Part shown: positions 488-62,085 of the stretch, piece after piece
How positions within the stretch are numbered: position 1 is the stretch's first letter
Layout: each line of letters starts with the position of its first letter
Source of the DNA: Ignavibacteriales bacterium
GTDB taxonomy: Bacteria; Bacteroidota; Ignavibacteria; UBA10030
DNA: 64,000 nt
Assembly: GCA_016194505.1 (NCBI GenBank)
Contig: JACQBK010000044.1
Coordinates: forward strand, 197-64,196
Direction of reading: 5' to 3'
Made by a program: the position numbers and the translations under genes
The notes under the pieces: generated by a model
What the model saw: the letters and a program-made list of their open reading frames with translations, nothing else
What the model was told of the DNA's origin: nothing
Database searches by the model: none

Positions 488-3400
488 TTAAGCTTCTTGT
501 TCCGCGGTTTTTAGCTCGCGCTTAAATCGTTCTTCAAAAACGACGTATAATATCGGAACAAAGAAAAGGGTTAAAATAGTTGAAAATGTTAAACCACCAA
601 TAACCGCTATTGCCAACGGCGCTTGAGTGGATTCGCCACCCAATCCGATTGCCATAGGAATAAGACCGAGAACCGTAGAAAGAGAAGTCATTAAGATCGG
701 CTTGAGTCTCGTTCGGCCTGCTTTTACAACCGCTTCGTGAAGTTCTGTCCCCCGCATTCGTAAGTGGTTCGTATAGTCAACCAGCAAAATGCCGTTGCTC
801 ACCACAATGCCAACCATAACAATGATGCCTTGGAATGACGTAACGGATAACGTTGTCTCCGTTAAAAATAATGTCCAAAATACGCCGACTATACCTAATG
901 GGACCGTGAACATGATTATAAACGGATCGATGAGTGATTGGAACTGGGACGCCATGACAACATACACCAGCAAAATCGCAAGACCAAATGCAAGGAGTAA
1001 GTCCCTGAACGTCTTTTGCTGCTGCTCTACATTGCCACCGATTTTTACCTCGAACCCGGGAGGGATATTTATCGTGGATGTAATCCGGTCGCGAATTTCA
1101 TCCGCAACACTTCCCAAATCTCTGCCGCTTACATTCGCGGTTACGTCAACGATGCGCTGTTGATACTTACGGTCAATCTGGACGGGCGAATTCGTCTTCA
1201 CGATTGTGGCGATATTGCCGAGTAAAATTTGTTGTCCGCCTGCCGTTGTGAGAACAAGGTTTTTTAAGTCTTCAATGTTGGAACGATAATCTTCGCTGAG
1301 TCTCACAAGAATGTTATATTGATTTCCGGTTTGGGGATCGGTAAATTGAGACGCTACGGATCCTGAAATGCATGTATTGATCGTACCCGAAACCTGTGCT
1401 ATATTCACGCCTAACACTCCTGCTTTGTCCCGATCAATCTTAACGCGCAGTTCGGGCAAGTTATCATCCCGGCTCACCTGCACATCAACAGCGCCCTCAG
1501 TTGAGCGGACAATTGCAGCGATCCGGTTTGCTAAGTCGGAGCTGGTCTTAATATCGTATCCACGAATCTCGACATCTATAGGAGCGGAAGAACCGAAATT
1601 CAATAAGAAGCGCAAGAACCCACCCGGACTTACAAACAGCGTTGCGCCCGGCAGCTGAGAAATTTTGGGACGAATGCCTTTTATTATTTCGAAGACACTA
1701 CGCTTGCGTTCATCAGGCGGAACAAGTGCCACCTGAAGATTAGCCGCATGGCTGCCCGGATTTCTGCCGAACGATGTGCCACTGCGTGAACTGGGAACAC
1801 CGACATCCGTGATGAGCGCTTGCATCTCAGGAACGTCCGTTTTCAAGATTTGCTCAACCCGCCTGACGACTTTATCTGTCTCCTCGGAACGTGTTCCCAC
1901 GGGCAATTTCACATTAATATTAAACTGACTTTCGTCTTGATCAGGGAAAAATTCTGTCCCAATGAATTTAATGAGTCCGAGTGAGATAACGGAAATGCCT
2001 AAAATCCCGATGATAATTATTCGCCGATGGCGCATTGCCCACTTCAATTGTTCAGCGTACCAATTATCCATTTTCTCAAGCATATCGTGCGCGCGCACGC
2101 GAATGCGATCAGGAAGCTTATCGGAGTTGCGGTCAAACAATTTTTCTGGGGGTAGGTACTTCAAGCACATTAACGGCGTTACCGTCCGGGAAACAAAAAA
2201 CGAACCGAACAACGCTACGGTAATCGTAATCGTCAAGGGAATGAACAACATTTTTGCAATGCCACTGAGAAAAACAATTGGAAGAAACACGATGACAGTT
2301 GTCAGTGTTGAAACAAAAATCGGCGCTGCGACTTCCTTCGCCGCTTCGAGCGTCGCTTGCATCCTCGTCTGTCCGGGTTTTCGCTCATTGTAATGACGGG
2401 AGATAGCCTCTAACTCTACAATGGAATCATCTACAAGGCGCCCCACCGCAAGTGCTAATCCCCCAAACGTCATAATATTGAGACTAATACTGCCGAAGCG
2501 GAATAAAATAAACGTAATCAAAATAGAAAGCGGTATTGCGACCAAAATAATAAGCGTTCCGCGAACATTGCGAAGGAAGAGCAATATAATGATCATCGCG
2601 AGAAGAGCACCAAGCATCGCCTCACGCTGCAAGCCTGAAATCGTTTGGCGAATATACAATGATTGATCAAACGAAAGGGAGAGTTGAACCGATTGCGGCA
2701 CGCTTGCCAGAGTAGGCAGTGCCTTCAGCACATTATCAACAACCTCCACTGTATTTGCAGTAGCAAGTTTCTGAACGCGGAGAGTTAAGCCGGGCTTGCC
2801 GTTGACGCGAATAATTTCGGTCTCTTCCTGATAGGTGTCTTCTACAGTCGCTACGTCGCCAATCCGTATAGGAACGCCGTTGACGTTCTGAATGACAATA
2901 TTCCCCATTGGTTTCACGACGTTGAAGCGACTCTCCGTGCGTAGAGAATAGTCAAACTGTCCCGTGCGAAGATCACCTGAGGGAATAATCAAATTTGAGC
3001 TTGCAATGGCGGTCAAAATGCTCGGAACGGGCAATCGGAGAGCTTGCAGCCTGTTGCGATCAATCGTAACGTGGATTTCGCGAATCCTTCCTCCGCTTAC
3101 CTGGGCTGACGCCACACCGGGAATATGTTCTATTTGAGGCTCTATGATGTTGTACGCAACATCATAGAGATCGCGAGGATCAATATCACCGGAGACAGCA
3201 ATGTTACAGACAGGCAAATTCGTAATATCAAAGCGAAGGACGGAGGGCTGAGAAACACCAATGGGCAAGGAGTTGATTACCCTATTTACTCTCTGCACCA
3301 CGTCTATCAAACCAACGTCAACGTTGGCATTCCAATTAAAATTAACGCGAACTTGTGATACTCCCTCACGCGTCGTTGACCGGACATAATCCACATCATT

Positions 3401-3634: not shown

Positions 3635-4687
3635 TTAGGGTTGAACGGATACGGATCCACCTTCCTTCACAAACTGCTGACCCGTTGTAATGATGTCTTC
3701 AGAACCGGTTATTCCCGAGAGAATTTCCGTTCGGGAGTCTTGTTCTATGCCTATTTGAACTCGCACGCGCTTAGCGATGTTATTTTCAACCACGTAAACA
3801 TAATCGCCAGCCTCATCATGGAGAACTGCCATTGTCGGCAGTGTGAGGGAATTTGGTTTCTCATCAATAATAAGCGATACGCTGGCAAACATACCGGGTT
3901 TGATGCTGTAATCGTTGTTCATAATCCTCACTTCGATAGCCATGGTGCGCGTCGAAAGATCAATGGCCTGACTGGCGTTGGCGACAAACCCTCCATATTC
4001 TTTTCCAGGGAGAGCATCAAACGTAATAATCGCTCGTTTTATCTTTGCAACAAGTGGAATATTTTTTTCCAAAACGTTGACGATGATCTTGACGCTATCA
4101 ATGTCCATCAGCGTGAAGAGCACCGAATTATTCAGGTTGACCAACGAGCCGACATCCAAAAACCGCCTCGTAATATATCCTGGAAATGGAGCGGTAATGC
4201 GCGCATAGCTTAACTTGGTCGCTGCTGCCTCATAATTCGCCCTCGAAACCTTCATCGTTGCCTCGGCGTTATCCGCATCTTGCTTTGAAACAAGGCTTTG
4301 GCTGAAGAGCTGCATTGTGCGCTGGTAAATCATTCGAGCATTAGAAAAAGTCGCTGAGGTTTGCTGCACCTGTTGAAAAAGTTCCGTCGAATCTATCACA
4401 GCGAGGAGTTGGTTTTGCCGCACCTTCGCACCCATATCAGCATATAACCGTTCAAGGTTCCCGCTCACCTTTGAGAAAATGCCTGCCTGGCGAATCGCCA
4501 AGACATCTCCATTAAATGTTAATTTGTAGGTAATAACTTCCCGTTTCGGCTTTTCCATACGGACAAGCTGGGCATTTTGCCGGCGATTATCCGAAGCAGT
4601 TTTACCGACAATCAAGCGATAGGACGCTAAACCTCCAACTCCTAAAATTACAATGCCAAACACAATATATTTTAGAATTTTTTTCAT
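3635..4687 (-). CDS. RND/efflux periplasmic adaptor (membrane fusion protein, HlyD/AcrA family), 350 aa
   Basis: N-terminal TM/signal, coiled-coil hairpin region, then a beta-barrel domain. It sits immediately upstream of the RND pump. Confidence 0.85.
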   Translation of the reverse strand: MKKILKYIVFGIVILGVGGLASYRLIVGKTASDNRRQNAQLVRMEKPKREVITYKLTFNGDVLAIRQAGIFSKVSGNLERLYADMGAKVRQNQLLAVIDSTELFQQVQQTSATFSNARMIYQRTMQLFSQSLVSKQDADNAEATMKVSRANYEAAATKLSYARITAPFPGYITRRFLDVGSLVNLNNSVLFTLMDIDSVKIIVNVLEKNIPLVAKIKRAIITFDALPGKEYGGFVANASQAIDLSTRTMAIEVRIMNNDYSIKPGMFASVSLIIDEKPNSLTLPTMAVLHDEAGDYVYVVENNIAKRVRVQIGIEQDSRTEILSGITGSEDIITTGQQFVKEGGSVSVQP

Positions 4688-12044: not shown

Positions 12045-12616
12045 TACTCCACTCTTTTAATAGTGCATCCAAATGCTTTTGTACTCGCGACAACAACCGG
12101 TTTGCCGGCAAGAATGTTATCCACCGCCGCTCGGAGGTCTTTGGATTTTACGTTGTTTTCTCTTGAGGAATCATCAATCCGACCATGATACAAAACTTCA
12201 AATTTGGAATTAAGAACGTAAATTTCAGGTGTAAAAGATGCCTCGAATTTATCGGCAATGATATTGTTCCAATCCTTTAAGACCGTAAACTCAAACCCAT
12301 GCGTTTTTGAATGGTCTTTAATTTCCTCGACCGATTCTTGTTTATTGGAATTGATGCCGATAACCGCGACATTCTTCTTGCTATAATCTTTATAAAACTC
12401 CACCATACGAGTATTGTAGGCATTGGAGACAGGGCATTGCGTTGCAATAAACATTAACACGATTGCTTTCGAATCTTTGTAATCAGAAAGCGAGTGCTTT
12501 ACGCCGTTGTAATCCTCCAACGTAAAATCCTCGGCTTTCTTAGGCTCATCGCCCGCAAAAAGCGGAAGCGCAAGCAACCCAAGAAACATGAAAATTCCCG
12601 TGATTTTCTTCAACAT
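12044..12616 (-). CDS. Thioredoxin-fold (redoxin/AhpC-TSA-like) secreted protein with CPVS active-site variant
   Basis: Signal peptide. FIATQCPVSNAY redoxin-like motif. A second Cys lies near the C-terminus. Confidence 0.6.
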   Translation of the reverse strand: MLKKITGIFMFLGLLALPLFAGDEPKKAEDFTLEDYNGVKHSLSDYKDSKAIVLMFIATQCPVSNAYNTRMVEFYKDYSKKNVAVIGINSNKQESVEEIKDHSKTHGFEFTVLKDWNNIIADKFEASFTPEIYVLNSKFEVLYHGRIDDSSRENNVKSKDLRAAVDNILAGKPVVVASTKAFGCTIKRVE

Positions 12617-12713
12617 AGTTATCTCCTCTCAAATGAGCCAAAGGCTCATCCCGCGAATGCGGGACAAGTTGTGCCTACGGCGCACAGTTGTGGTTTGTTT
12701 AAAAAGACTACTT

Positions 12714-12850
12714 GAGACCTCTGAATGATTAAATTAACTGTCACGGTGAGCGCCTGCCTGCCGCAGGCAGGGAGTCGAACCGTGATTTTGGATTAAATTC
12801 GCCCCTCGACTCCGCTCGGGGTGACGAATTTAGAATATTTCAGAGGTCTC
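12714..12850. repeat. Fold-back MITE-like element with perfect 12-bp TIR (gagacctctgaa / ttcagaggtctc) enclosing the 19-bp palindrome cctgcctgccgcaggcagg (12753-12771)
   Basis: Inverted termini at 12714-12725 and 12839-12850. The internal modules 'gtcacggtgagcgcctgcctgc..' and 'gtcaccccgagcgg' are shared with the element at 28217-28334. Confidence 0.6.
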
Positions 12851-12866
12851 TATTAGCTTCTTCACC

Positions 12867-15269
12867 TTATTTGTCGCCAACGACAACCTTATTTTTCACA
12901 TACTTATCCGCCCATTCCAGCATTTCTGCAAGCACGTGCAATACCGACTCCCGACCGGAATACCCATGGCTTTCGAATGGCAGGATCACTAAACGAGCAG
13001 TTCCGCCATTTCCTTTCATTGCTTGATACAGTCGCTCTGACTGGATGGGAAATGTGCCGGAGTTGTTATCAGCCTCACCATGAATCATCAGCAGAGGCTC
13101 ATTGATTTTATTCGCGTACGTAAAGGGCGAGACTTTCATATACGTATCAGGTGCCTCCCAAAAAGACCTACGCTCGGTCTGGAAGCCAAACGGTGTCAGC
13201 GTACGGTTGTACGCTCCACTGCGGGCAATGCCAGCCGCAAAGAGATCGGAATGGGCAAGAAGATTTGCGGTCATGAACGCGCCGTAACTATGTCCAGAGA
13301 CCAGCACACGTTTTCGATCTATCACCCCCATGCCATCCAATTTATCAATGGCGGCTTTGGCGGCACCGACTATTTGCTCAACAAAAGTATTGTTCATCGT
13401 CTCCGGATCACCAACCACAGGCATTGTAGCATCCATCAACACGGCATAGCCTTGAGTGACGAAGAATAACGGCGAAGGTCCTCTAAAGAACGTAAATGAA
13501 TTCGGAGAACCGCGCACCTGTCCCGCTGTTCCGGCATCCGAATACTCCAGCGGATATGCCCAAATAAGAAGGGGCAATCGAGTGCCTTCCTTATAGTTGG
13601 GGGGCAAATAGAGCGTTCCGGAAAGTGCAACGCCATCGCTCCGATTATATTTTACCAATTCTTTTCTCATACCCGTCAATTGCGGGGCAGGGTCTTTGAG
13701 ATCGGTAATCGCTTTCCGCTTCTTTGAGGAGAGATCGAGGACATAATAATTCGGCACTTCGGTTTTGGATTCGTATCTCGTTACAGCTTGAGTCCGAGAG
13801 TTACCGGCAAACGCTATGAACTGCTCAACGCTTTTATCGTCAGAACGGTAGAGGCGTTCTTTCTTTAAGGATTTTAAATTCATTTTGTCAATAAACGGAC
13901 GATCGCCTTGCTCCGACGCTCCCCTTCCCCGCAAATAGATCCAATCACCATCTTGCAGGAGAACACTTTCACCATCAATTCTCGTTTCATAAATAGGATT
14001 ACCAGGATCGTTGTAAGCATCATTAACGCTTAAATCGAAGATAACTTTTTTCGTTTCAGGCTTTGCAAGATTAACGAATGAAGTAGTTCTCCATCGACGG
14101 TCGCGGTCAAATTCATGCACCAGCACTTCGTCTTTTTTTGCTGTCCACTCAAAGCCCTGATAGCGGTGCTGAAGTTTCATACTCTCGACAGGCGACCCGT
14201 TAAAAGGGGCGACGAGAGACATTATCTTATCCCGATTTGGCACCTTTTTCATCGGGTCACCGCCATCTAACGCTTCCACCCAAACAAGCTTTGCATTTTG
14301 GAGCGCCTGCCATCGGATAGCGCGCGGTCCCGTGCGAACTCCCTGCGTCGGGATTTCATCTTGAACGAGAAGATCAACAATCATTTTCACGACGGAGCCT
14401 TTTGCATCCCACACTTCTGTTGTTTGAGCAAAATTAAAATAGGGAACTCTGTAGGAGAATGGAGTATTTAATCGTGTGACGAGCAGGTATTGTTCATCCG
14501 GCGAGAAGTTTGCAGAAAGAATCATTGCCGGCTTGCCGATATTTTTAACATCGCCCGTTTGGGAATTCACAACCGCGAGCTGGCTTAATGAATAATAAGC
14601 AAAGAGTTGCTCGTCATAAGGGGTTTTAAGTAAATCCTGAAACGTTGCCGTTTTCGAGACCTTGCCGTACGTTTCTTCTATAATCGGCCCGATGGGAACC
14701 TTGGGAGCCTCAGGCGCTTTCCCTCTTCCTTGCGGAATTGTTCTGACAAGCAAGCTCGTATTATCCTTCAACCATTCAAACGAAGCGCCAAGCACATCAT
14801 TGATACGCACCGTTCCAACCGCGTGCGCTTTGCCGGTTGCTGCATCTGCCACCCAAAGCTCCACGCCATCTCCAACATCATTTGCAAAAGCGATCTTCTT
14901 GCCATCGTACGACCAGACGGGCATGCCGATTTTTGCATCCGCAGATAATTCTATACGTACGGAACTGGCGCCGCTAATTTTTTTTATGCTTATGCCTGTG
15001 TAACGAGTAAGTCGTTGGCGGGCATTCAACGCCGGATCAATCCGCAATCCGCCAATTCGCAAGAAGGGCTGGGCAACCATTGCGATGGGCGGCTGGGAAA
15101 GATACTCCACCAACATTAAGGCATCATTCCGCGGACTCATTGCGGCAAAGGGAGTCGGCGCTGCATCCACTATATTAACAACTTCTTTAGGGGGAAGCTT
15201 GTAGGGAGTCTGAGCAAACGCAGTAAGCACTCCAACGACAAGGCACAAGGACGTAAGAAGGCGTTTCAT
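12867..15269 (-). CDS. S9 family serine peptidase (prolyl oligopeptidase/dipeptidyl-peptidase-like) with N-terminal beta-propeller, secreted, 800 aa
   Basis: Signal peptide. C-terminal alpha/beta hydrolase with GHSYGAFMT (GxSxG) plus downstream Asp/His. Confidence 0.85.
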   Translation of the reverse strand: MKRLLTSLCLVVGVLTAFAQTPYKLPPKEVVNIVDAAPTPFAAMSPRNDALMLVEYLSQPPIAMVAQPFLRIGGLRIDPALNARQRLTRYTGISIKKISGASSVRIELSADAKIGMPVWSYDGKKIAFANDVGDGVELWVADAATGKAHAVGTVRINDVLGASFEWLKDNTSLLVRTIPQGRGKAPEAPKVPIGPIIEETYGKVSKTATFQDLLKTPYDEQLFAYYSLSQLAVVNSQTGDVKNIGKPAMILSANFSPDEQYLLVTRLNTPFSYRVPYFNFAQTTEVWDAKGSVVKMIVDLLVQDEIPTQGVRTGPRAIRWQALQNAKLVWVEALDGGDPMKKVPNRDKIMSLVAPFNGSPVESMKLQHRYQGFEWTAKKDEVLVHEFDRDRRWRTTSFVNLAKPETKKVIFDLSVNDAYNDPGNPIYETRIDGESVLLQDGDWIYLRGRGASEQGDRPFIDKMNLKSLKKERLYRSDDKSVEQFIAFAGNSRTQAVTRYESKTEVPNYYVLDLSSKKRKAITDLKDPAPQLTGMRKELVKYNRSDGVALSGTLYLPPNYKEGTRLPLLIWAYPLEYSDAGTAGQVRGSPNSFTFFRGPSPLFFVTQGYAVLMDATMPVVGDPETMNNTFVEQIVGAAKAAIDKLDGMGVIDRKRVLVSGHSYGAFMTANLLAHSDLFAAGIARSGAYNRTLTPFGFQTERRSFWEAPDTYMKVSPFTYANKINEPLLMIHGEADNNSGTFPIQSERLYQAMKGNGGTARLVILPFESHGYSGRESVLHVLAEMLEWADKYVKNKVVVGDK

Positions 15270-20087: not shown

Positions 20088-20250
20088 TGAGGGGGCTAAA
20101 GCCCTTATTTCTTTTGGGTGTTGTTCCACCCCGACCTATCCCGCCATGCCTGCGGCAGGCAGGTTGTACGGGATGCTGAAAAACGCAAAGGTCGGGGTTA
20201 TTACGATACCTCTCCAGCCATAGTTATAACCCCGCCCTTTAGGGCGTGGG
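20088..20250. repeat. Mosaic palindromic repeat element inserted between sdaAB and sdaAA
   Basis: Components: hairpin gggctaaagccc (20093-20104); a long nested hairpin ccccgacct-atcccg-..gcctgcggcaggc..-cgggat-..-aggtcgggg (20129-20197); 'ttataaccccgccctttagggcg' (20224-20248). Modules are shared with the element at 34605-34854. Confidence 0.6.
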
Positions 20251-20328
20251 CACAATCGAGTACAATTCGGGTTTCAACCCTGAAAAAACCTGCCAAAAAT
20301 CATTTTTGAGATGGTTTCTACGTATACT

Positions 20329-22481: not shown

Positions 22482-22649
22482 CACCTGAAAAATAGATATA
22501 GTATGTATTTGCGAGGAGCTTGCCCGCCGTGGCGGGCGACGAAGCCTGTCCGCCGACAGGCGGGCAATCTCTCAATCAAAGGACAAATGGGATTGCTTCG
22601 TCGTCCTTTCAGGGCTCCTCGCAATGACTTTTTGTAAGTTACTCTAATC
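22482..22649. repeat. Degenerate copy of the MITE-like fold-back element family (opposite orientation to the 61906-62061 copy)
   Basis: The internal 38-nt block ggattgcttcgtcgtcctttcagg(g)ctcctcgcaatgac matches the reverse complement of 61930-61970. Ends are degenerate TIR-like (cacctgaaaaatagatata / ctttttgtaagttactctaatc). Long-range pairing ttgcgaggagc/gctcctcgcaa. Confidence 0.55.
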
Positions 22650-28216: not shown

Positions 28217-28334
28217 AGTATCTCAAAAATGGGTTCTCAAAAGCAAAGTCACCCCGAGCGCCTGCCTGCCGGCAGGCGCTCACCATGACGGCGGGACTCA
28301 GTCTGACGGTCTTTTTTGGTATTTTTGAGATACT
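28217..28334. repeat. MITE-like fold-back element, 14-bp perfect TIR agtatctcaaaaat / atttttgagatact
   Basis: Termini at 28217-28230 and 28321-28334. The interior carries the gagcgcc-tgcctgccggcagg-cgctc palindrome (28255-28281). Confidence 0.65.
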
Positions 28335-30319: not shown

Positions 30320-30778
30320 TTAATCTCGGCAAGAAATTGCGTGAGCTGCGGGCTGAAGTGCAGGTTGAACGGCAGGTTTCGGAGGCGGTTTCAGCACTCG
30401 AGCTCCACCTGCGGCAGGCGCTTGCGCAACAGGTTGCGGCGCGGCTTCAACAACCAGCGGGGGTGCCGGGGCGGGAGCTTCCGTCGCCAACTCCGGTGAA
30501 GTCTTTAATTTCTCATAAAGCTCTTTGACGCTGACAAGAATAAGCTGTGCGGATACTTGGAAAAAAAAAGCGCCGTTGACATCGCCTAAAACTTTATTTT
30601 TGTAGGGAACCCCGATCGGGCCTGCTTGCTCCAATGTTTCGAGGCAAGCTTTCCGCCATTCCAAATATTTATTTTGGAGCCGCGCGTTATACCCTGAGAA
30701 CTCAAATCCACCAAGCGGGACAAGCTGAGTTCCCGTTGTAACAAGCTGCTCTAATGTTTGCACAAGATTATTCGACAT
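30320..30778 (-). CDS. Hypothetical protein with Pro/Ala-rich C-terminal tail (152 aa)
   Basis: ORF only. The last ~60 codons come from a GC-rich tract (30340-30480) that is open in several frames. Confidence 0.25.
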   Translation of the reverse strand: MSNNLVQTLEQLVTTGTQLVPLGGFEFSGYNARLQNKYLEWRKACLETLEQAGPIGVPYKNKVLGDVNGAFFFQVSAQLILVSVKELYEKLKTSPELATEAPAPAPPLVVEAAPQPVAQAPAAGGARVLKPPPKPAVQPALQPAAHAISCRD

Positions 30779-34604: not shown

Positions 34605-34854
34605 TTAGAAGCTATCTCAAAAAAATGCGCTAATAGTATTTTAAACGGGTTTGCGCTCGATGCGCACTTTTGCGCCATCTTTTGGGCGCATCCCTGCCTG
34701 CGACAGGCAGGCGCCTTCGGCGGAAAAACCCGTAATATTATTTTAACTTTTTGTCCACGTCCTAAAGGACGTGGTTATAACCCCGACCTTCAGGTCGGGG
34801 GAGAAGAAGAAAAAAGCAAGGGCTTTAGCCCTGATCAACAAAGATAGTTCTAAG
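34605..34854. repeat. Composite MITE-like element between the ubiD-like and ubiX-like genes
   Basis: Left TIR ttagaagctatctcaaaaaaa (34605-34625), identical over 19 nt to the TIR of the 61906-62061 copy. Degenerate right end gatagttctaag (34843-34854). Internal hairpins: cctgcctgcgacaggcagg (34693-34711), ccacgtcctaaaggacgtgg (34755-34774), ttataaccccgaccttcaggtcgggg (34775-34800), gggctttagccc (34820-34831). Confidence 0.6.
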
Positions 34855-34871
34855 ACGATTTCAGTTTCGTG

Positions 34872-38502: not shown

Positions 38503-38541
38503 GTGTAAAAACTCAAGTAAGGTAACTATATTTATGAAATT

Positions 38542-39312
38542 TGGAGTTACTCCGTTAAGAAGATATTTTTCTTAGAATATTTTCTTCCATCGCTTGAATG
38601 CCCTTACATCCTCAGCACTCAATTTAAAAAACTCACCTTTAATTCTCTTTTCTTTAAAACGATTATGCCAATATGCTTCGATTCCGGTCGGATCGTCTGT
38701 TTCAATAGCGTGGATACACCTAGGCGGTTCGGGTTAGAGTAATCCATTCTGTAATTCGGCTTTGCGTCTTTCAACATTATTTGTTTTACCAATTTTATAA
38801 TATTGACCTGATTCGAAAAGGTAAACCCACCCTTTACTTTGACCAATATTCAAATTATCGTCGTCAGTTTCAGTCTTTGAACTTCCAATAATCTCCCTAC
38901 AAATCTCAACTACATCGCTGTATCCTTTTTGAGTTGCATACTTGGATATTTCCAAAGCGGTATTTTTTTTATTACCAAACTGCTGCATTGTATTCTTGTT
39001 TGGAAAACCCCGATCAGTATTACATTTAACAGATAATTCGCCTGACGTAGGGTAATGACCAAGCTCTCGCATGAGGGCTATCCATTTATCGAAAAGGAAC
39101 TCTTCGTCATAGGCTTTTGGGCGAGTATTTGGTTTAAAACCAGCTTCACGTTGAGCATCACCAAATCTTGCCCAAAACTTTCCCCACTCATAAGGTCTTA
39201 TGCCTGTTTCCTTTTGGAACTTTCTCCTACCAAGAGGAACGCCACCGCTTTCTTTGGCAGTTCGGCGTATTGCATCAAGAATGTTTTCTTTGGTGGAATG
39301 ACTCATAGCCAA
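38542..39312 (-). pseudogene. T5orf172 / GIY-YIG-like domain protein interrupted by an in-frame TAA (nonsense) inside the conserved C-terminal domain
   Basis: The 192-aa ORF ends ..GWVYLFESGQYYKIGKTNNVERRKAELQNGLL* at ~38734. The same frame continues [53 protein letters not shown] to ~38542. Together these form a complete T5orf172-type domain. Confidence 0.6.
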
Positions 39313-39344
39313 TCTATGTGTGACACAAATGCTTTACTAATACA

Positions 39345-39978
39345 CATGCCGCTCCGTTAGGAGCGGGACTGTTTATAGAATCATCATAGTAAAATCACCA
39401 AGCCCCATCGGGGCGACCTGTGGATTCGTCTTCAAGCCAGTTGAAAAGATATTTTGTGTTGTACTCAACGGCAAAATCCTTTAGCATATTCAGGTATTCT
39501 TCTTTAAACGTCGCTTTCCGATGATGCTCCTCCTGATTCTGAATGTATTTTACCACCCGGTCAATCTCTGAATGCGAGTGAGAAAATGCACCAAATCCTT
39601 CCTGCCAATTAAATTTCCCACGAACCCATCTCTGCTCGTTTATGAATCCGGATGATCCAGCTTTAACATCTCTTACAAAGTCGGAAAGCGCGAGCGTTGG
39701 CTTCAGTCCGACAAAAACATGCATATGGTCGGGCTCGCAGTTGATACTAATGAGTTTCTGTCCGCGCTTTTTTACAATTCCCGTCGTGTATTTGCACAGT
39801 TCCTCTTTGTGCTGACGTGGGATCAAATTCTGCCTTCCCTGCACTGCAAAAACAATATGGACATAAACTTGTGTGTAGGTGTTAGCCATAGCGCCTTTGC
39901 TTACTTGACAGGCCGCTCCTACGGAGCTATCTCCTTTTTCCTTGATAATACTATAAACAGCTCGTCCCTATCGGGACT
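39345..39978. mobile_element. Compact IS200/IS605-family (or RAYT-type) element: single HUH tyrosine transposase gene flanked by subterminal hairpins and 18-bp imperfect inverted repeats
   Basis: An 18-mer tgatRaTWctataaacag lies in inverted orientation at 39369-39386 and 39942-39959. Hairpins ccgctcc-gtta-ggagcgg (39349-39366) and ggccgctcc-tac-ggagc (39910-39926) sit on the two sides. A further hairpin gtccc-tatc-gggac is at 39963-39976. Confidence 0.55.
39395..39889 (-). CDS. tnpA: IS200-like / RAYT-like Y1 HUH transposase TnpA, 164 aa
   Basis: MANTYTQVYVHIVFAVQGRQ N-terminus, HUH motif DHMHVFV, catalytic Tyr context VVKYIQNQEEHH. Typical transposase_17 family. Confidence 0.8.
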   Translation of the reverse strand: MANTYTQVYVHIVFAVQGRQNLIPRQHKEELCKYTTGIVKKRGQKLISINCEPDHMHVFVGLKPTLALSDFVRDVKAGSSGFINEQRWVRGKFNWQEGFGAFSHSHSEIDRVVKYIQNQEEHHRKATFKEEYLNMLKDFAVEYNTKYLFNWLEDESTGRPDGAW

Positions 39979-40041
39979 CAAAAACACATAGTGCACTGAT
40001 CCCTTAAACAACGCCGAGGAAATGTCAAATCTTCCCGCCTA

Positions 40042-43249: not shown

Positions 43250-43279
43250 AAAAAAAAACCCAGCCGAAGGTGCTGGGTT
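43250..43279 (-). terminator. Rho-independent terminator after the DUF2795-like gene
   Basis: On the minus strand the hairpin aacccagc-accttcg-gctgggtt is followed by T8-9. Confidence 0.75.
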
Positions 43280-43347
43280 AACTCTTATGCTATCCGCTCT
43301 TTCGCAAAGAACAAACTGTCCTTTGCACAAAAGCCGCGATCAGCAGT

Positions 43348-43382
43348 GAGCCAAAGGCTCACCCCTGCCTGCGGCAGGCAAG
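43348..43382. repeat. Palindromic repeat module: gagccaaaggctc hairpin plus cctgcctgcggcaggcaag palindrome
   Basis: The same two modules occur at 12635-12647 and in the other cctgcctgc..gcaggcagg sites. Confidence 0.55.
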
Positions 43383-43395
43383 CGCCTCTGGCGGA

Positions 43396-57757: not shown

Positions 57758-57917
57758 TAGAACCTATCTCAAAAATATCATACAATCTTCCAACGGTTCA
57801 AAACTTTGTACGTAGAGCGAACTTTAGTTCGCTAACCCATTTTGGCAGCTGAAGCTCGCCCTACAATGTACCCCAGCCGACAGAGGCCCTTTCTCTCTGT
57901 TTTTGAGATGGCTTCTA
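57758..57917. repeat. MITE-like fold-back element (TIR tagaacctatctcaaaaa / tttttgagatggcttcta) between paralog 1 and the TonB-dependent receptor
   Basis: TIRs at 57758-57775 and 57900-57917. Internal palindrome agcgaactttagttcgct. The right TIR abuts the stop codon of the paralog-1 gene. Confidence 0.65.
57770..57777 (-). promoter_or_regulatory. Candidate FCB-type -7 promoter box (TAnnTTTG as TATTTTTG) carried by the MITE TIR, oriented toward the TonB-dependent receptor gene
   Basis: The minus strand reads ..TTTTG-N21-TATTTTTG ~75 nt upstream of the receptor ATG (57699). The motif is intrinsic to the TIR sequence. Confidence 0.3.
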
Positions 57918-58643
57918 ATGAATAACCCCACCTTCCTGACCCGGACAACCCTCCGGATCGAAACCATCGGGGTGATAAGGTTTATGAATATTTTCCGGAT
58001 ACAAGCCACAATGTTCCGATGTCATGATCGGAGGACAACAATTGGAAGTAACATATCTACTCACGAAACAAAGCGAATACCTAACAGGTCCGAAGTACAC
58101 AGGCGCTCGCTGATCGTAAATTTTGAGTTCCCCTCTGAGAATAAAATCTTCGGTGTACGCCAAACCACGAGAGATACCATGTGTTTTTAAAATATCACAA
58201 GTTGAATCCACGATATACCGAAAGAATTGAGTCCGAAGGTCTTTACCATTATCATCCGCCTTAAAATCCCACTGGATGCCGAGACGAATCGTATCCTGTG
58301 GGTCAATCAAGAGCATGCCTGAGTTTCTATCATAGCCGGGAGCGCGAATAACGTTACTTGGACCGATAGCAAAGGTCTTCCTAATTGAGGGGTCGCTTAC
58401 TGAAACAATTTCAATGCTTCCTTTTAATATCCCCGGTGCCTGAAAGGTTTCGTCAAAAATGTTTCGCACAATTAATTGAACACTCATCACATTTTGAACA
58501 ACTGAAAGAATATACGAAGGCTGTATGGTGCCTTCAAATATCTTATCCGGCGCTTGGTAGGTCGGCAGTGACTCGTCGCAGGGTCCAAGCGAGAGGCTTA
58601 CGAGAGCAAGAATACAAATTAAAAATAATGTATGTCTCTGCAT
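57915..58643 (-). CDS. Secreted Cys-containing protein, paralog 1 of a tandem lineage-specific family (unknown function)
   Basis: Signal peptide MQRHTLFLICILALVSLSLG, then the conserved PCDESLPTYQAPDKIF..RNIFDETFQ..WDF..AYTED.. core. The C-terminus is extended relative to paralogs 2 and 3. Confidence 0.6.
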   Translation of the reverse strand: MQRHTLFLICILALVSLSLGPCDESLPTYQAPDKIFEGTIQPSYILSVVQNVMSVQLIVRNIFDETFQAPGILKGSIEIVSVSDPSIRKTFAIGPSNVIRAPGYDRNSGMLLIDPQDTIRLGIQWDFKADDNGKDLRTQFFRYIVDSTCDILKTHGISRGLAYTEDFILRGELKIYDQRAPVYFGPVRYSLCFVSRYVTSNCCPPIMTSEHCGLYPENIHKPYHPDGFDPEGCPGQEGGVIH

Positions 58644-58656
58644 GTTATTCTCTCCT

Positions 58657-59289
58657 TTAATGGGGATATCTAAAGGGACAATTCGCTGTAAACGGAAATG
58701 GAAGAGGAGGACATTCTTGAGGATCACCCACTATATAGCAAAAACTATGCAAAATAGGAACACCTCGTATAATACCCGTCTTCTCAAAGACCGTTATTTC
58801 TCCACTGATAATAACATCTTCCGTATAAGCTATTTTTTGTGTCCTGCATGCCGGATTCTCCCATACGCGAAAAAAATCTGTCAGGAGATTACTGCCCTTG
58901 TCGTCGGTGAAATCCCATGTCACTCCAACGCGAATGGTATCTCCCGGGTCTATTGTCAGTATGCTCGAGATGGGATTATAGTCTTTCGCCTTGATAAGAT
59001 TTGCAACGCTGAGCTTAAATGTTTTGTGAATGCTTGAGTCTCTTGCCGAAGTAATTTGGATGGTTCCGCGCAGTATGGCTTTAGATTGAATAGTTTCGTC
59101 AAAAATATTGCGCACATGTATTTGGACAAAAAAACCGTTGAGCACCTTGGTCACAACATAAGAAGACACCATCGTCGCATCAAATATTTTTTCCGGCTCT
59201 TTATATGTGGGCAATGACTCGTCGCACGGTCCGAATGAGAGACTCATGAGTGCAAGAATATAAAATAAGAATATTGTATATCGTTGCAT
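58657..59289 (-). CDS. Secreted Cys-containing protein, paralog 2
   Basis: MQRYTIFLFYILALMSLSFGPCDESLPTYKEPEKIF... ends ..ECPPLPFPFTANCPFRYPH. Confidence 0.6.
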   Translation of the reverse strand: MQRYTIFLFYILALMSLSFGPCDESLPTYKEPEKIFDATMVSSYVVTKVLNGFFVQIHVRNIFDETIQSKAILRGTIQITSARDSSIHKTFKLSVANLIKAKDYNPISSILTIDPGDTIRVGVTWDFTDDKGSNLLTDFFRVWENPACRTQKIAYTEDVIISGEITVFEKTGIIRGVPILHSFCYIVGDPQECPPLPFPFTANCPFRYPH

Positions 59290-59302
59290 GTCGTTTTCTC
59301 TT

Positions 59303-59929
59303 CTATTGAGGATATCTGAAAGGACAGTTGGCGCTAAACGGAAATGGACTACAGCTTTGGGGGTCTCCAGTGACATAACAAAAACTATGAAGGATTGGGG
59401 GAGCTTTTGTAATCCCGGTTTTTTCAAAAACTCTCATTTCTCCACTAATCATGAAATCTTCAGCATAAGCGATACTTCGTCCTTTACATTGCGGATCGGG
59501 TACAATTCGAAAAAAATCTGCTAAAAGATCTCTCCCTGTGTCATCTTTGAAATCCCACAAAACGCCCAAACGAATGGAATCTCCGGAGTTAAAGGTTAAA
59601 GTGTTTGTGACTTGATCATATCCCGGAACGTAAAGAAACAGTATTTCTGAAATGTTAAATGTTCTTTTAATACTAGGATTTCTCATCGAAGTTATTTGAA
59701 TCATGCCTTGAAAAGCGGGTTTCGCTTGAAAAGTTTCATCAAAAACATTACGTATTTTCAATTCAACAAAGAAGTTATTTCGAGTTGCCGTAACAACGTA
59801 TGATGACGCCAGCGCTGCATCAAATATTTTCTCCGGCTCTTGGTATGTGGGTAAAGATTCATCACAAGGGCCAGATGAAATGCTGAGGAGTGCTGTTAGA
59901 AGAACAGCTAGAATCGTTTGTTGTTTCAT
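59303..59929 (-). CDS. Secreted Cys-containing protein, paralog 3
   Basis: MKQQTILAVLLTALLSISSGPCDESLPTYQEPEKIF... ends ..SCSPFPFSANCPFRYPQ. Confidence 0.6.
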   Translation of the reverse strand: MKQQTILAVLLTALLSISSGPCDESLPTYQEPEKIFDAALASSYVVTATRNNFFVELKIRNVFDETFQAKPAFQGMIQITSMRNPSIKRTFNISEILFLYVPGYDQVTNTLTFNSGDSIRLGVLWDFKDDTGRDLLADFFRIVPDPQCKGRSIAYAEDFMISGEMRVFEKTGITKAPPILHSFCYVTGDPQSCSPFPFSANCPFRYPQ

Positions 59930-61809: not shown

Positions 61810-61905
61810 AAAACCCGTCTTTTCGTTGAATACTTATTAAATACAACAATGGCTCCTCGCTACTCAATGGAGAGCAAGCAGTTTCGCCAAATTCTCTTTA
61901 AGATA

Positions 61906-62061
61906 CTAGAAGTTATCTCAAAAACCTCGGTCCGTCGTCATTGCGAGGAGTCCTGAAAGGACGACGAAGCAATCCTATAGTTTGAAAAGAATTAAAGTTA
62001 GATTGCTTCGCAAAAAACGCTCGCAATAGCAATTTTATGTATTTTTGAGATAGCTTCTAAA
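61906..62061. repeat. Best-preserved copy of the MITE-like fold-back element family (TIR ctagaagttatctcaaaaa / tttttgagatagcttctaa)
   Basis: 19-bp TIRs at 61906-61924 and 62043-62061. Nested inverted pairs inside (cgtcgtc/gacgacg, attgcgag/ctcgcaat, gaagcaatc/gattgcttc) predict a long fold-back. Length ~156 bp. Confidence 0.7.
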
Positions 62062-62085
62062 TAAGTTATAGTAGAAGCAAACTGC

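Follow-up and report, generated by a model that had tools for sequence, protein, structure and literature searches.

The stretch of DNA analysed here (hereafter the window) comprises 64,000 nucleotides and represents nearly all of a 64.9-kb contig (JACQBK010000044.1) of an Ignavibacteriales metagenome-assembled genome (MAG). It has a G+C content of 46%, is approximately 90% coding and carries 46 of its 56 genes on the minus strand. The gaps between its genes hold five copies of a GC-rich palindrome of 19 bases with the form CCTGCCTGC-N-GCAGGCAGG (hereafter the 19-mer), which is the subject of this study. A search with CCTGCCTGCNGCAGGCAGG, allowing up to 3 mismatches, identified four window sites, whereas dinucleotide-preserving shuffles expect 0.02 and none of 100 shuffles reached four; the site at 12753-12771 is exact, and those at 20145-20163, 34693-34711 and 43364-43382 have one mismatch each. 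The fifth copy, at 28256-28281, is a register variant, GAGCGCCTGCC-TGCC-GGCAGGCGCTC, with a perfect 11-bp stem. The initial annotation of this DNA had described a recurrent, intergenic palindrome of ~19 bp, and these numbers confirm that it is real. The sixth copy suspected near 30407 is not a member; it lies in coding sequence, has only the inner CCTGC-G-GCAGG (an 11-mer) in common with the others and falls beyond 3 mismatches. Four of the copies lie between co-directional genes, in gaps where they are 87-137 bp upstream of gene starts, and the remaining one lies between convergent stops. GC-rich perfect hairpins with a stem of at least 7 bp are concentrated in the same DNA, as 12 of 18 belong to the non-coding ~10% of the window; a 13th (34781) counted as coding solely through its overlap with a spurious open reading frame (ORF). 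The 19-mer folds into an 8-bp stem with a 3-nt loop, at -8 kcal/mol as DNA and -13 kcal/mol as RNA, and is thus a good RNA hairpin rather than the poor one it had been taken for.

The exact copy at 12753-12771 (plus strand; CCTGCCTGC-C-GCAGGCAGG, with the central pyrimidine on the plus strand and a G at position -1) is hosted by a TGTC-tagged hairpin at 12740-12786 (plus strand), which resembles repetitive extragenic palindromic (REP) sequences and reads GTC-ACGGT-GAGCG-[19-mer]-GAGTCGA-ACCGT-GAT. An inverted sister hairpin at 12797-12825 (minus strand), (C)GTC-ACCCC-GAGCG^GAGTCGA-GGGGC-GAAT, has no palindrome. The sole length difference between this filled site and its empty sister is exactly the 19-bp insert at GAGCG^GAGTCGA, the filled version reading GTCACGGTGAGCG[19-mer]GAGTCGAACCGTGAT and the empty one GTCACCCCGAGCG--GAGTCGAGGGGCGAAT. 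The insert makes a weak hairpin strong, as the empty sister alone folds at -3.2 kcal/mol (z 0.26) and the filled hairpin, as DNA, at -14.6 kcal/mol (z -3.7). Both inverted hairpins are enclosed by a 12-bp inverted repeat, GAGACCTCTGAA / TTCAGAGGTCTC, and together form a composite element at 12714-12850, delimited by direct reading and by folding. The string GAGTCGAACC has a tRNA-like look; a tRNA scan of the whole window found no tRNA.

Filled and empty sites of the 19-mer in other genomes

The presence and absence of a discrete 19-bp unit at otherwise matching sites is seen well beyond the window. Joined flanks of filled sites were searched with blastn-short against DNA fetched from other genomes (loci numbered L), and empty counterparts were found for 30 filled sites, many of them in the same genome and with 26-32 matching flank bases. 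Such pairs occur in five different host repeats of the gammaproteobacterial chromosome OZ251218.1, in the MAGs MC-11 and AUK045, in a Parcubacteria MAG and in Acidiferrales MAGs. Clean 19-bp presence and absence is found in at least 10 genomes besides the window. The difference between filled and empty sites is always exactly 19 bp, with no target duplication beyond a possible single G, and empty copies are commoner than filled ones (17 to 1 in the case of one repeat). The junction lies no more than 2 nt from an apical loop in 9 of 13 empty sites, and the usual position of the 19-mer is in or next to the apical loop of an existing hairpin. The hosts include (C/T)GTC REP-like hairpins, the centres of longer palindromic repeats, copies of tRNA T-arms and the 19-mer itself, which is also nested inside other copies of its own. 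For instance, in Desulfobacteraceae and 'Deltaproteobacteria' MAGs (L111 93, L012, L031, L065, L074 and L078), the 19-mer marks the exact midpoint of a perfectly palindromic repeat longer than 100 bp, …gtttgccgaaga[19-mer]tcttcggcaaac…, of which an empty copy is found at L078 444-474.

Two further contexts are of interest. The 19-mer occupies the T-loop of duplicated tRNA 3' ends at L045 2722 (the real tRNA-Asp is at 4583-4659) and L119 3084 (tRNA-Arg at 3192-3268), and the nearby functional tRNA genes are intact in both loci. These partial 3'-end duplicates resemble the attachment-site copies of integrated elements. In addition, an IS630-family transposase gene (DDE_3; L007 5959-7014, in the Gammaproteobacteria MAG OZ251218.1) contains two copies, the first replacing the first catalytic Asp codon (…HWG-TCLLQAG-ETG…) and the second shifting the frame near the C-terminus. 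The frame across the first of these copies is kept only if a G-run lacks one base, possibly through a homopolymer error of long-read sequencing.

The insert has a measurable polarity. All four central bases occur, and a G is found at -1 in 54 of 75 copies with a central pyrimidine versus 9 of 53 with a central purine (Fisher p = 5e-10); a central purine is accompanied by a C at +1, which is the mirror image of the same association. Among 128 flanks only position -1 is biased (G in ~70%), positions -2 to -4 being near uniform. The usual site is just 3' of a G, on the strand with the central pyrimidine, and this is also the tag strand in 12 of 14 tagged hosts. In a simple test, pairing between the immediate flanks was at chance level, and the stem is therefore exactly 9+1+9; outer pairing occurs only via the host hairpin, with an offset. 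Among 28 imperfect copies, 49 stem changes are one-sided and 2 are two-sided. The one-sided changes represent decay after insertion and not upkeep of the structure.

The exact pattern was found in at least 120 stretches of GTDB species-representative genomes, where our own uniform-composition arithmetic, which is no tool result, gives a chance expectation of ~9 for 596 Gb. Among the matches listed there are ~95 assemblies and, by record title, ~18 phylum-level groups. These comprise Acidobacteriota, Bacteroidota, Ignavibacteriota, Gamma- and Betaproteobacteria, Desulfobacterota, Myxococcota, Planctomycetota, Verrucomicrobiota, Omnitrophota, Elusimicrobiota, Nitrospirota, Armatimonadota, Calditrichota, Marinisomatota, WOR-3, Stahlbacteria, Bipolaricaulota and several lineages of the candidate phyla radiation (CPR). 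Cultured isolates and complete genomes are included (Algoriphagus halophilus CP146486, A. taiwanensis, Robertkochia flava, Pedobacter vanadiisoli and Winogradskyella). Copies in other genomes tend to stay out of long open frames, the median open frame covering them being 114 aa, versus 341 aa at random positions. The fetched loci have no other palindrome in common between genomes, apart from variants on the CCTGCC theme. The exact 19-mer is also present in 13 viral contigs of IMG/VR (L125-L137); in the same scan of viral contigs an arm-swapped control palindrome gave 0 matches and two composition-matched controls 0 and 0. In two of these contigs (L135 1988 and L137 3348) it adjoins Mu-like head genes (Phage_Mu_F, Mu-like_gpT), and viral contigs are a possible route of spread between hosts.

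Host hairpins, outer frames and transposase gene of the window

The remaining copies in the window are embedded in longer and more varied repeats. The 1-mismatch copy CATGCCTGCGGCAGGCAGG (20145-20163, minus strand) lies between the serine dehydratase beta and alpha genes (sdaAB-sdaAA), nested in tcccg...cggga and ccccgacct...aggtcgggg (20129-20197), with a fold of -20.6 kcal/mol as DNA and -36.8 kcal/mol as RNA. The register variant is part of a hairpin at 28248-28289 (plus strand), GTCA-CCCC-GAGCGCCTGCC-TGCC-GGCAGGCGCTC-ACCA-TGAC, with the perfect stem at 28256-28281; it folds at -16.4 kcal/mol (z -5.6) and lies between convergent genes, in a frame with short inverted ends TATCTCAAAAA (28219 / 28332). 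The copy at 34693-34711 (minus strand), CCTGCCTGCGACAGGCAGG, has its mismatch next to the loop and is followed by a small hairpin, cgccttcggcg (34712-34722). It forms one arm of a cloverleaf-like four-hairpin junction at 34637-34735, which is closed by ACGGGTTT / AAACCCGT and folds as RNA at -46.1 kcal/mol (z -4.3); this unit is in turn part of a ~250-bp mosaic in the ubiX-ubiD gap (34606-34855), whose left border is TAGAAGCTATCTCAAAAA and whose right border is a degenerate inverted copy, AAGATAGTTCTAA. The last copy, CCTGCCTGCGGCAGGCAAG (43364-43382, minus strand), is flanked by gtgagccaaaggctcac (43346-43362) and cgcctctggcg (43383-43393), and lies between a 74-aa gene, whose stop codon it follows by 14 bp, and the intrinsic terminator of that gene (43257-43279). 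The 34693 and 43364 copies have a longer unit of 33 nt in common, consisting of the palindrome and cgccYYYggcg.

Several hairpin modules recur between these mosaics, at the places given in the initial annotation: gagccaaaggctc at 12635 and 43349, gtcaccccgagcg at 12814-12825 (minus strand) and 28248 (plus strand), ttataaccccg... at 20223 and 34774, and gggctttagccc at 20092 and 34820. A separate module is found at 20223-20250, 34755-34801 and also 20189-20201, where GC-rich hairpins (ccccgacct-tc-aggtcgggg, cgccct-tt-agggcg and ccacgtcct-aa-aggacgtgg) abut the 8-bp palindrome GTTATAAC, and it may be a separate family of tagged hairpins. The gggct-ttag/aaag-agccc module (20091-20106, plus strand, and 34819-34832, minus strand) is followed by a T-run and was called terminator-like at both places; some mosaic modules may thus act as terminators, unlike the 19-mer.

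The order of nesting in the window is that of a palindrome in the loop of a (C/T)GTC-tagged hairpin, and of that hairpin in an inverted-repeat frame. The host hairpins begin with (C/T)GTC-A and have a GAG-rich loop; their pattern GTCAYNNYGAGS has 6 window matches versus 0.76 expected, and their tags are TGTC at 12739, CGTC at 12826 (minus strand) and 61936, and AGTC at 22628 (minus strand) and 28248. Palindrome-free members are found at 61936-61975, 22590-22628, 22505-22573 and 12797-12825. The region 22505-22628 is a tail-to-tail pair of (C)GTC-type hairpins without the 19-mer, in which the second hairpin is GTCATTGCGAGGAGCCCTGAAAGGACGACGAAGCAATCC and the first has the inner hairpins GCCCGCC-GT-GGCGGGC and GCCTGTC-CGCC-GACAGGC. 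The former of these (22520-22537) is also present in an Omnitrophota MAG (L034 2421-2475), and the 19-mer may not be the sole hairpin module common to several phyla.

These hosts correspond in part to the CGTC superfamily of REPs (Di Nocera et al. 2013, PMC3733652), which is known from several phyla including Chlorobi and Bacteroidetes, has Neisseria dRS3 and Rickettsia RPE-4/RPE-6 among its members and has no known dedicated transposase. CGTC REPs have an unpaired CGTC, TGTC or CCTC at one end, A-T first pairs, a stem of 8-9 bp, a loop of 4-5 nt and a CC(A) tail, and occur as dimers in longer palindromes (PMC3733652). The window hosts likewise start with CGTC or TGTC and form inverted dimers inside longer palindromic frames, and many may share the A-T first pairs (ATTGC...GCAAT, ATTCC...GGAAT) and the CC end. 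The ATTGC...GCAAT-CC hairpins at 61937 and 22628 match the A-T first pairs and the CC tail, whereas some stems begin with A-C, the ACGGT and ACCCC stems matching the CGTC rule at the first base only. The window hosts differ in being longer (39-47 nt) and in having a GA-rich internal loop with an inner hairpin, or the 19-mer, in place of the 4-5 nt loop, and the 19-mer itself is untagged and is a guest in the loop.

One type of outer frame ends in TAGAASYTATCTCAAAAA, an 18-bp inverted sequence with TA at both outer edges. This end has 6 window matches versus 0.32 expected and defines a family with members at 57758-57917, 61907-62059, 34606-34855, 28219-28332 and 20303-20320, of which those at 34606-34855 and 28219-28332 are degenerate. 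The 153-bp frame at 61907-62059 has perfect 18-bp inverted ends, TAGAAG(T/C)TATCTCAAAAA, and encloses a CGTC hairpin (61936-61975, plus strand) and its degenerate inverted partner (62000-62030, minus strand), and the 160-bp frame at 57758-57917 (TAGAACCTATCTCAAAAA ... TTTTTGAGATGGCTTCTA) has no palindrome. A metagenome scan (loci L138-L257) gave at least 120 stretches with this frame end and 67 paired elements, mostly of ~146 bp; six elements of 806-886 bp (e.g. L254 18-849) encode a frameshifted DUF4096 + DDE_Tnp_1 transposase of the IS5 family, and no such transposase is found in the window. As the ends of the small frames match those of the ~840-bp transposase-encoding elements, the frames are IS5-type miniature inverted-repeat transposable elements (MITEs), an assignment that covers the outer frames only and not the 19-mer. 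None of the 67 paired metagenomic MITEs has the palindrome or a CGTC hairpin, and therefore the MITEs of this genome were invaded. As a candidate target-site duplication, the TA at both ends of these frames is inseparable from the repeat itself, and the frame of the 12.7-kb composite, GAGACCTCTGAA, differs from the IS5-type ends. Elsewhere in the window are three tandem paralogous ORFs (57915-59929; 270, 256 and 208 aa) with a spacing of ~640-646 bp and DNA segments that are 72-81% identical, with repeat families at 58441/59087/59727 and 58504/59150/59790.

The gaps of the window differ from those of its relatives. The ubiX-ubiD gap measures 297 bp in the window, 41 bp in one related contig (L123; 87% UbiD identity) and 19 bp in another (L124; 77% UbiD identity), and a 15.8-kb syntenic relative has no palindrome, no half-site and no tagged hairpin. 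The gene gaps of the window are recent, lineage-specific mosaics.

The window also carries an IS200-type Y1 transposase gene (39395-39889, minus strand), which the initial annotation had put forward as the enzyme acting on the palindromes. Its product passed the NCBIfam IS200/IS605 model (69.3 bits, cut-off 55) and failed that of the REP-associated tyrosine transposases (RAYTs; 24.7 bits, cut-off 80). The gene has its own inverted flanks (39349-39381 and 39915-39977), with hairpins CCGCTCC-GTTA-GGAGCGG, GCTCC-TAC-GGAGC and GTCCC-TATC-GGGAC and an inverted CTGTTTATAG(A/T)AT that is present nowhere else in the window; the hairpins have no further window copies and no likeness to CCTGCCTGC, and the last codons of the ORF pass through a hairpin (gccccatcggggc). 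The 1.5-kb segment at 38503-40041, between holB and metG, is an insertion relative to the syntenic relative L124, and contigs from the Logan collection with the same Y1 gene represent the same locus and added no second copy. The segment also holds an unannotated 192-aa ORF (38734-39312) with no Pfam or NCBIfam match. Being of the IS200 type, having unrelated end hairpins and having no homologue in 845 kb around 129 copies elsewhere, the Y1 gene was rejected as the partner of the 19-mer.

Rfam gave no window match at the gathering score, and permissive Rfam scans of 12600-12870 and 61890-62070 returned chance-level matches only. A further suggestion, that the palindromes are operator sites of a global regulator, was not supported. 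They have no fixed position relative to promoters and are missing at the same genes in relatives; the sites lie between co-directional or convergent genes, in operons, in a 3' untranslated region (UTR) and inside other repeats, and the identical 19-mer is found in unrelated phyla, a transposase pseudogene and copies of tRNA fragments. The 150 ORFs of neighbouring genes match 158 Pfam families, none of them more than 2 times, and no linked family emerged. Full-text literature searches with the 19-mer, with the CGTC-host sequences and with descriptions of the insert returned only primer matches and general REP papers. In the searchable literature we found no account of a 19-bp insert with such clean limits that targets the loops of hairpins and crosses phyla, and the initial annotation had not noted this property either.

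Proposed movement in trans and rival explanations

Several known systems resemble the 19-mer in part. The closest working model, by analogy, is the group-3 REP of Stenotrophomonas maltophilia (REP/SMAG, with the RAYT TnpA-Sm), with which the 19-mer has in common its geometry (a GC-rich 8-bp stem and a 3-nt loop in 19 nt), its extragenic and dispersed location and the same kind of polarity signals, one strand being the element and its orientation being given by a loop base and the 5' foot. In that system, the RAYT acts on one strand only, binding and cutting a perfect 8-bp stem capped by a loop of 3 nt; a single loop base is critical, cleavage depends on the 5' foot, and mismatches in the stem lower activity (PMC8266576). 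Such a loss of activity would favour perfect copies. Unlike group-3 REPs, the 19-mer has no GTAG but only a G at -1 in ~70%, sits inside other hairpins instead of standing free and is identical in ~18 phyla, whereas REP/RAYT pairs are lineage-specific (PMC6006769). A RAYT gene flanked by the same REPs (a REPtron) is absent from the window and from every fetched locus. By the classical definition of REPs, the 19-mer is short, GC-rich, extragenic and dispersed, with 5 copies in 64 kb, all in gaps, and lacks the GT[AG]G at the 5' foot. The description of the palindromes as REP- or BIME-like holds in kind, as they are extragenic, short and rich in GC, they cluster with other hairpin modules in mosaics that syntenic relatives lack, and the host hairpins bear the (C/T)GTC tag of the CGTC superfamily; it does not extend to membership of the GTAG/RAYT family.

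In a fashion similar to the bacterial interspersed mosaic elements (BIMEs) of Escherichia coli and the Neisseria intergenic mosaic elements (NIMEs), the window mosaics are clusters of differing palindromic modules in gaps, often in operons, that vary among relatives; in contrast to these, the modules are nested, hairpin within hairpin within MITE, instead of alternating in tandem, and the analysis identified no linker motifs of the IHF type. The outer frames of the window have their 18-bp inverted ends in common with the ~146-bp metagenomic MITEs of the IS5 family (IS427/IS1031-like); such MITEs explain only these frames, and the 19-mer has no end duplication. Fungal mitochondria harbour mobile GC-rich palindromes (yeast GC clusters, Neurospora PstI palindromes and double-hairpin elements), whose mechanism is not known. 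These are likewise very short, non-coding, GC-rich inserts at many sites, including sites in genes, but they are organellar, have other sequences and usually have short duplicated target bases at their flanks.

We tentatively propose, as a possibility that falls somewhat short of a firm expectation, that (G)CCTGCCTGC-Y-GCAGGCAGG is a tag-less, miniature REP-like hairpin module that is not itself mobile and is moved in trans. An enzyme, most plausibly an HUH/Y1 (RAYT-like) nuclease, would cut and rejoin the unit as single-stranded DNA, and might recognise it by its perfect stem, its loop base and the base at its 5' foot, in the manner of group-3 RAYTs acting on their 8-bp/3-nt REPs. The unit would enter transiently single-stranded DNA, e.g. 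hairpin loops at the replication fork, 3' of a G. Continuous re-copying of the best-recognised form could keep the same master sequence in very different bacteria; in this proposal, selection for recognition by the enzyme would explain why perfect master copies recur while old ones decay. The 19-mer is probably selfish or neutral for the cell, and very stable stem-loops in the transcripts of host operons would be a side effect.

A number of points weigh against this proposal. No enzyme for the 19-mer was identified in the analysis, the Y1 gene of the window having been rejected. A tblastn search of 845 kb around 129 palindrome copies elsewhere gave no Y1 homologue, which is a weak test because RAYTs act from a distance. 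The identity of the 19-mer across ~18 phyla far exceeds that of known lineage-specific REP/RAYT pairs, the counts over genomes lack phylogenetic independence, and the case for insertion instead of deletion is argued from counts and not from a dated phylogeny. In addition, there is no GTAG or CGTC tag beside the 19-mer, and the characterised RAYTs all need the tag for cleavage (PMC8266576). As movement in trans fits uncomfortably with the identity across ~18 phyla, which is the unusual feature of this case, three rival explanations, namely passive spread, an excision scar and a selected functional site, are retained below.

The 19-mer could be a passive module, one of many apical segments that spreads only with its host repeats, the empty sites being deletion products of unstable palindromes. 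Long palindromes are indeed prone to deletion, the 34693 and 43364 copies have their 33-nt unit in common, and other inner hairpins (GTCCT-GAA-AGGAC, TCCCGAC-TC-GTCGGGA and GCCCGCC-GT-GGCGGGC) take the same position in CGTC hosts. We nevertheless consider it unlikely: a single chromosome has the 19-mer in at least five host repeats that are unrelated, its contexts in different phyla are unrelated too (the tRNA T-arm copy, the IS630 gene and the Mu-like phage contigs), empties far outnumber filled copies, slippage does not yield an exact 19-bp excision without flanking direct repeats, and the fetched loci contain no second palindrome with such recurrence. The perfect inverted pair around a single, variable central base also resembles the junction of two terminal inverted repeats. 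On this reading the 19-mer would be the scar left by the excision of a larger element, or a minimal derivative of one, with ends CCTGCCTGC... and ...GCAGGCAGG, its 9-bp termini joined with one base between them; solo half-sites are indeed ~7-fold over the uniform expectation in fetched DNA. This is improbable, given that ~1.05 Mb around 140 copies contained no outward pair of half-sites bounding an element of 0.1-6 kb, that there is no target duplication and that bacteria rarely reseal donor sites. Moreover, the stem is constant among variants that differ at the centre (CCTGCC-TAA-GGCAGG, ...TATAG...), which resembles variation of a hairpin and not of end joints.

The stability of the RNA, at -13 kcal/mol alone and -24 to -46 kcal/mol in context, and the location of copies within the sdaAB-sdaAA and ubiX-ubiD operons and, ahead of a terminator, in a 3' UTR could instead indicate a selected functional site. 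This would be either the binding site of a dimeric protein (at an operator, or for a nucleoid protein) or a stem-loop in RNA by which operon transcripts are stabilised or punctuated. The REPs of E. coli are known to protect upstream mRNA. Such a role has little probability here, as pair breaks are uncompensated (the 49 one-sided versus 2 two-sided changes), syntenic relatives manage without copies, the distance to gene starts is not fixed, copies occur in pseudogenes and tRNA-gene fragments, and no regulator is conserved over ~18 phyla including CPR bacteria. That GC-rich stem-loops 3' of genes might be intrinsic (Rho-independent) terminators is very improbable; terminator and promoter scans called no palindrome at any of the five sites, no copy is followed by a T-run, real terminators are separate from the palindromes (e.g. 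43279-43257, minus strand) and copies lie between the two subunit genes of one enzyme. Finally, many matches lie in MAGs and near contig ends, as might be expected of an artefact of assembly or library preparation (a chimera, or a hairpin from an adapter). This we regard as scarcely credible, as the motif also occurs in isolates and in complete genomes, some copies are mutated or shifted in register, the preference for context is consistent and enrichment at contig ends is what repeats produce.

Repeats of the REP type rank among the most abundant features of the non-coding DNA of bacteria. To our knowledge, how they spread has been worked out only where GTAG-tagged REPs have a resident RAYT, and we know of no mobilising enzyme reported for the CGTC superfamily since 2013. 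The present case provides a 19-nt unit with defined filled and empty sites, a measurable polarity, a preference for loops and the same sequence in distant bacteria. The practical effects of these nested hairpins include broken assemblies, inflated intergenic regions, spurious small ORFs and stable stem-loops in operon transcripts. A stronger version of our proposal, in which the 19-mer is the smallest self-contained mobile DNA module so far seen in bacteria, enters the single-stranded loops of other hairpins strand-specifically and with no target duplication, and stays identical in ~18 phyla and in phage contigs through a conserved hairpin-specific enzyme or templating system, seems to us rather doubtful. 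If true, it would represent a new class of 'hairpin-in-hairpin' parasite, and possibly a clue to how orphan CGTC-type REPs move.

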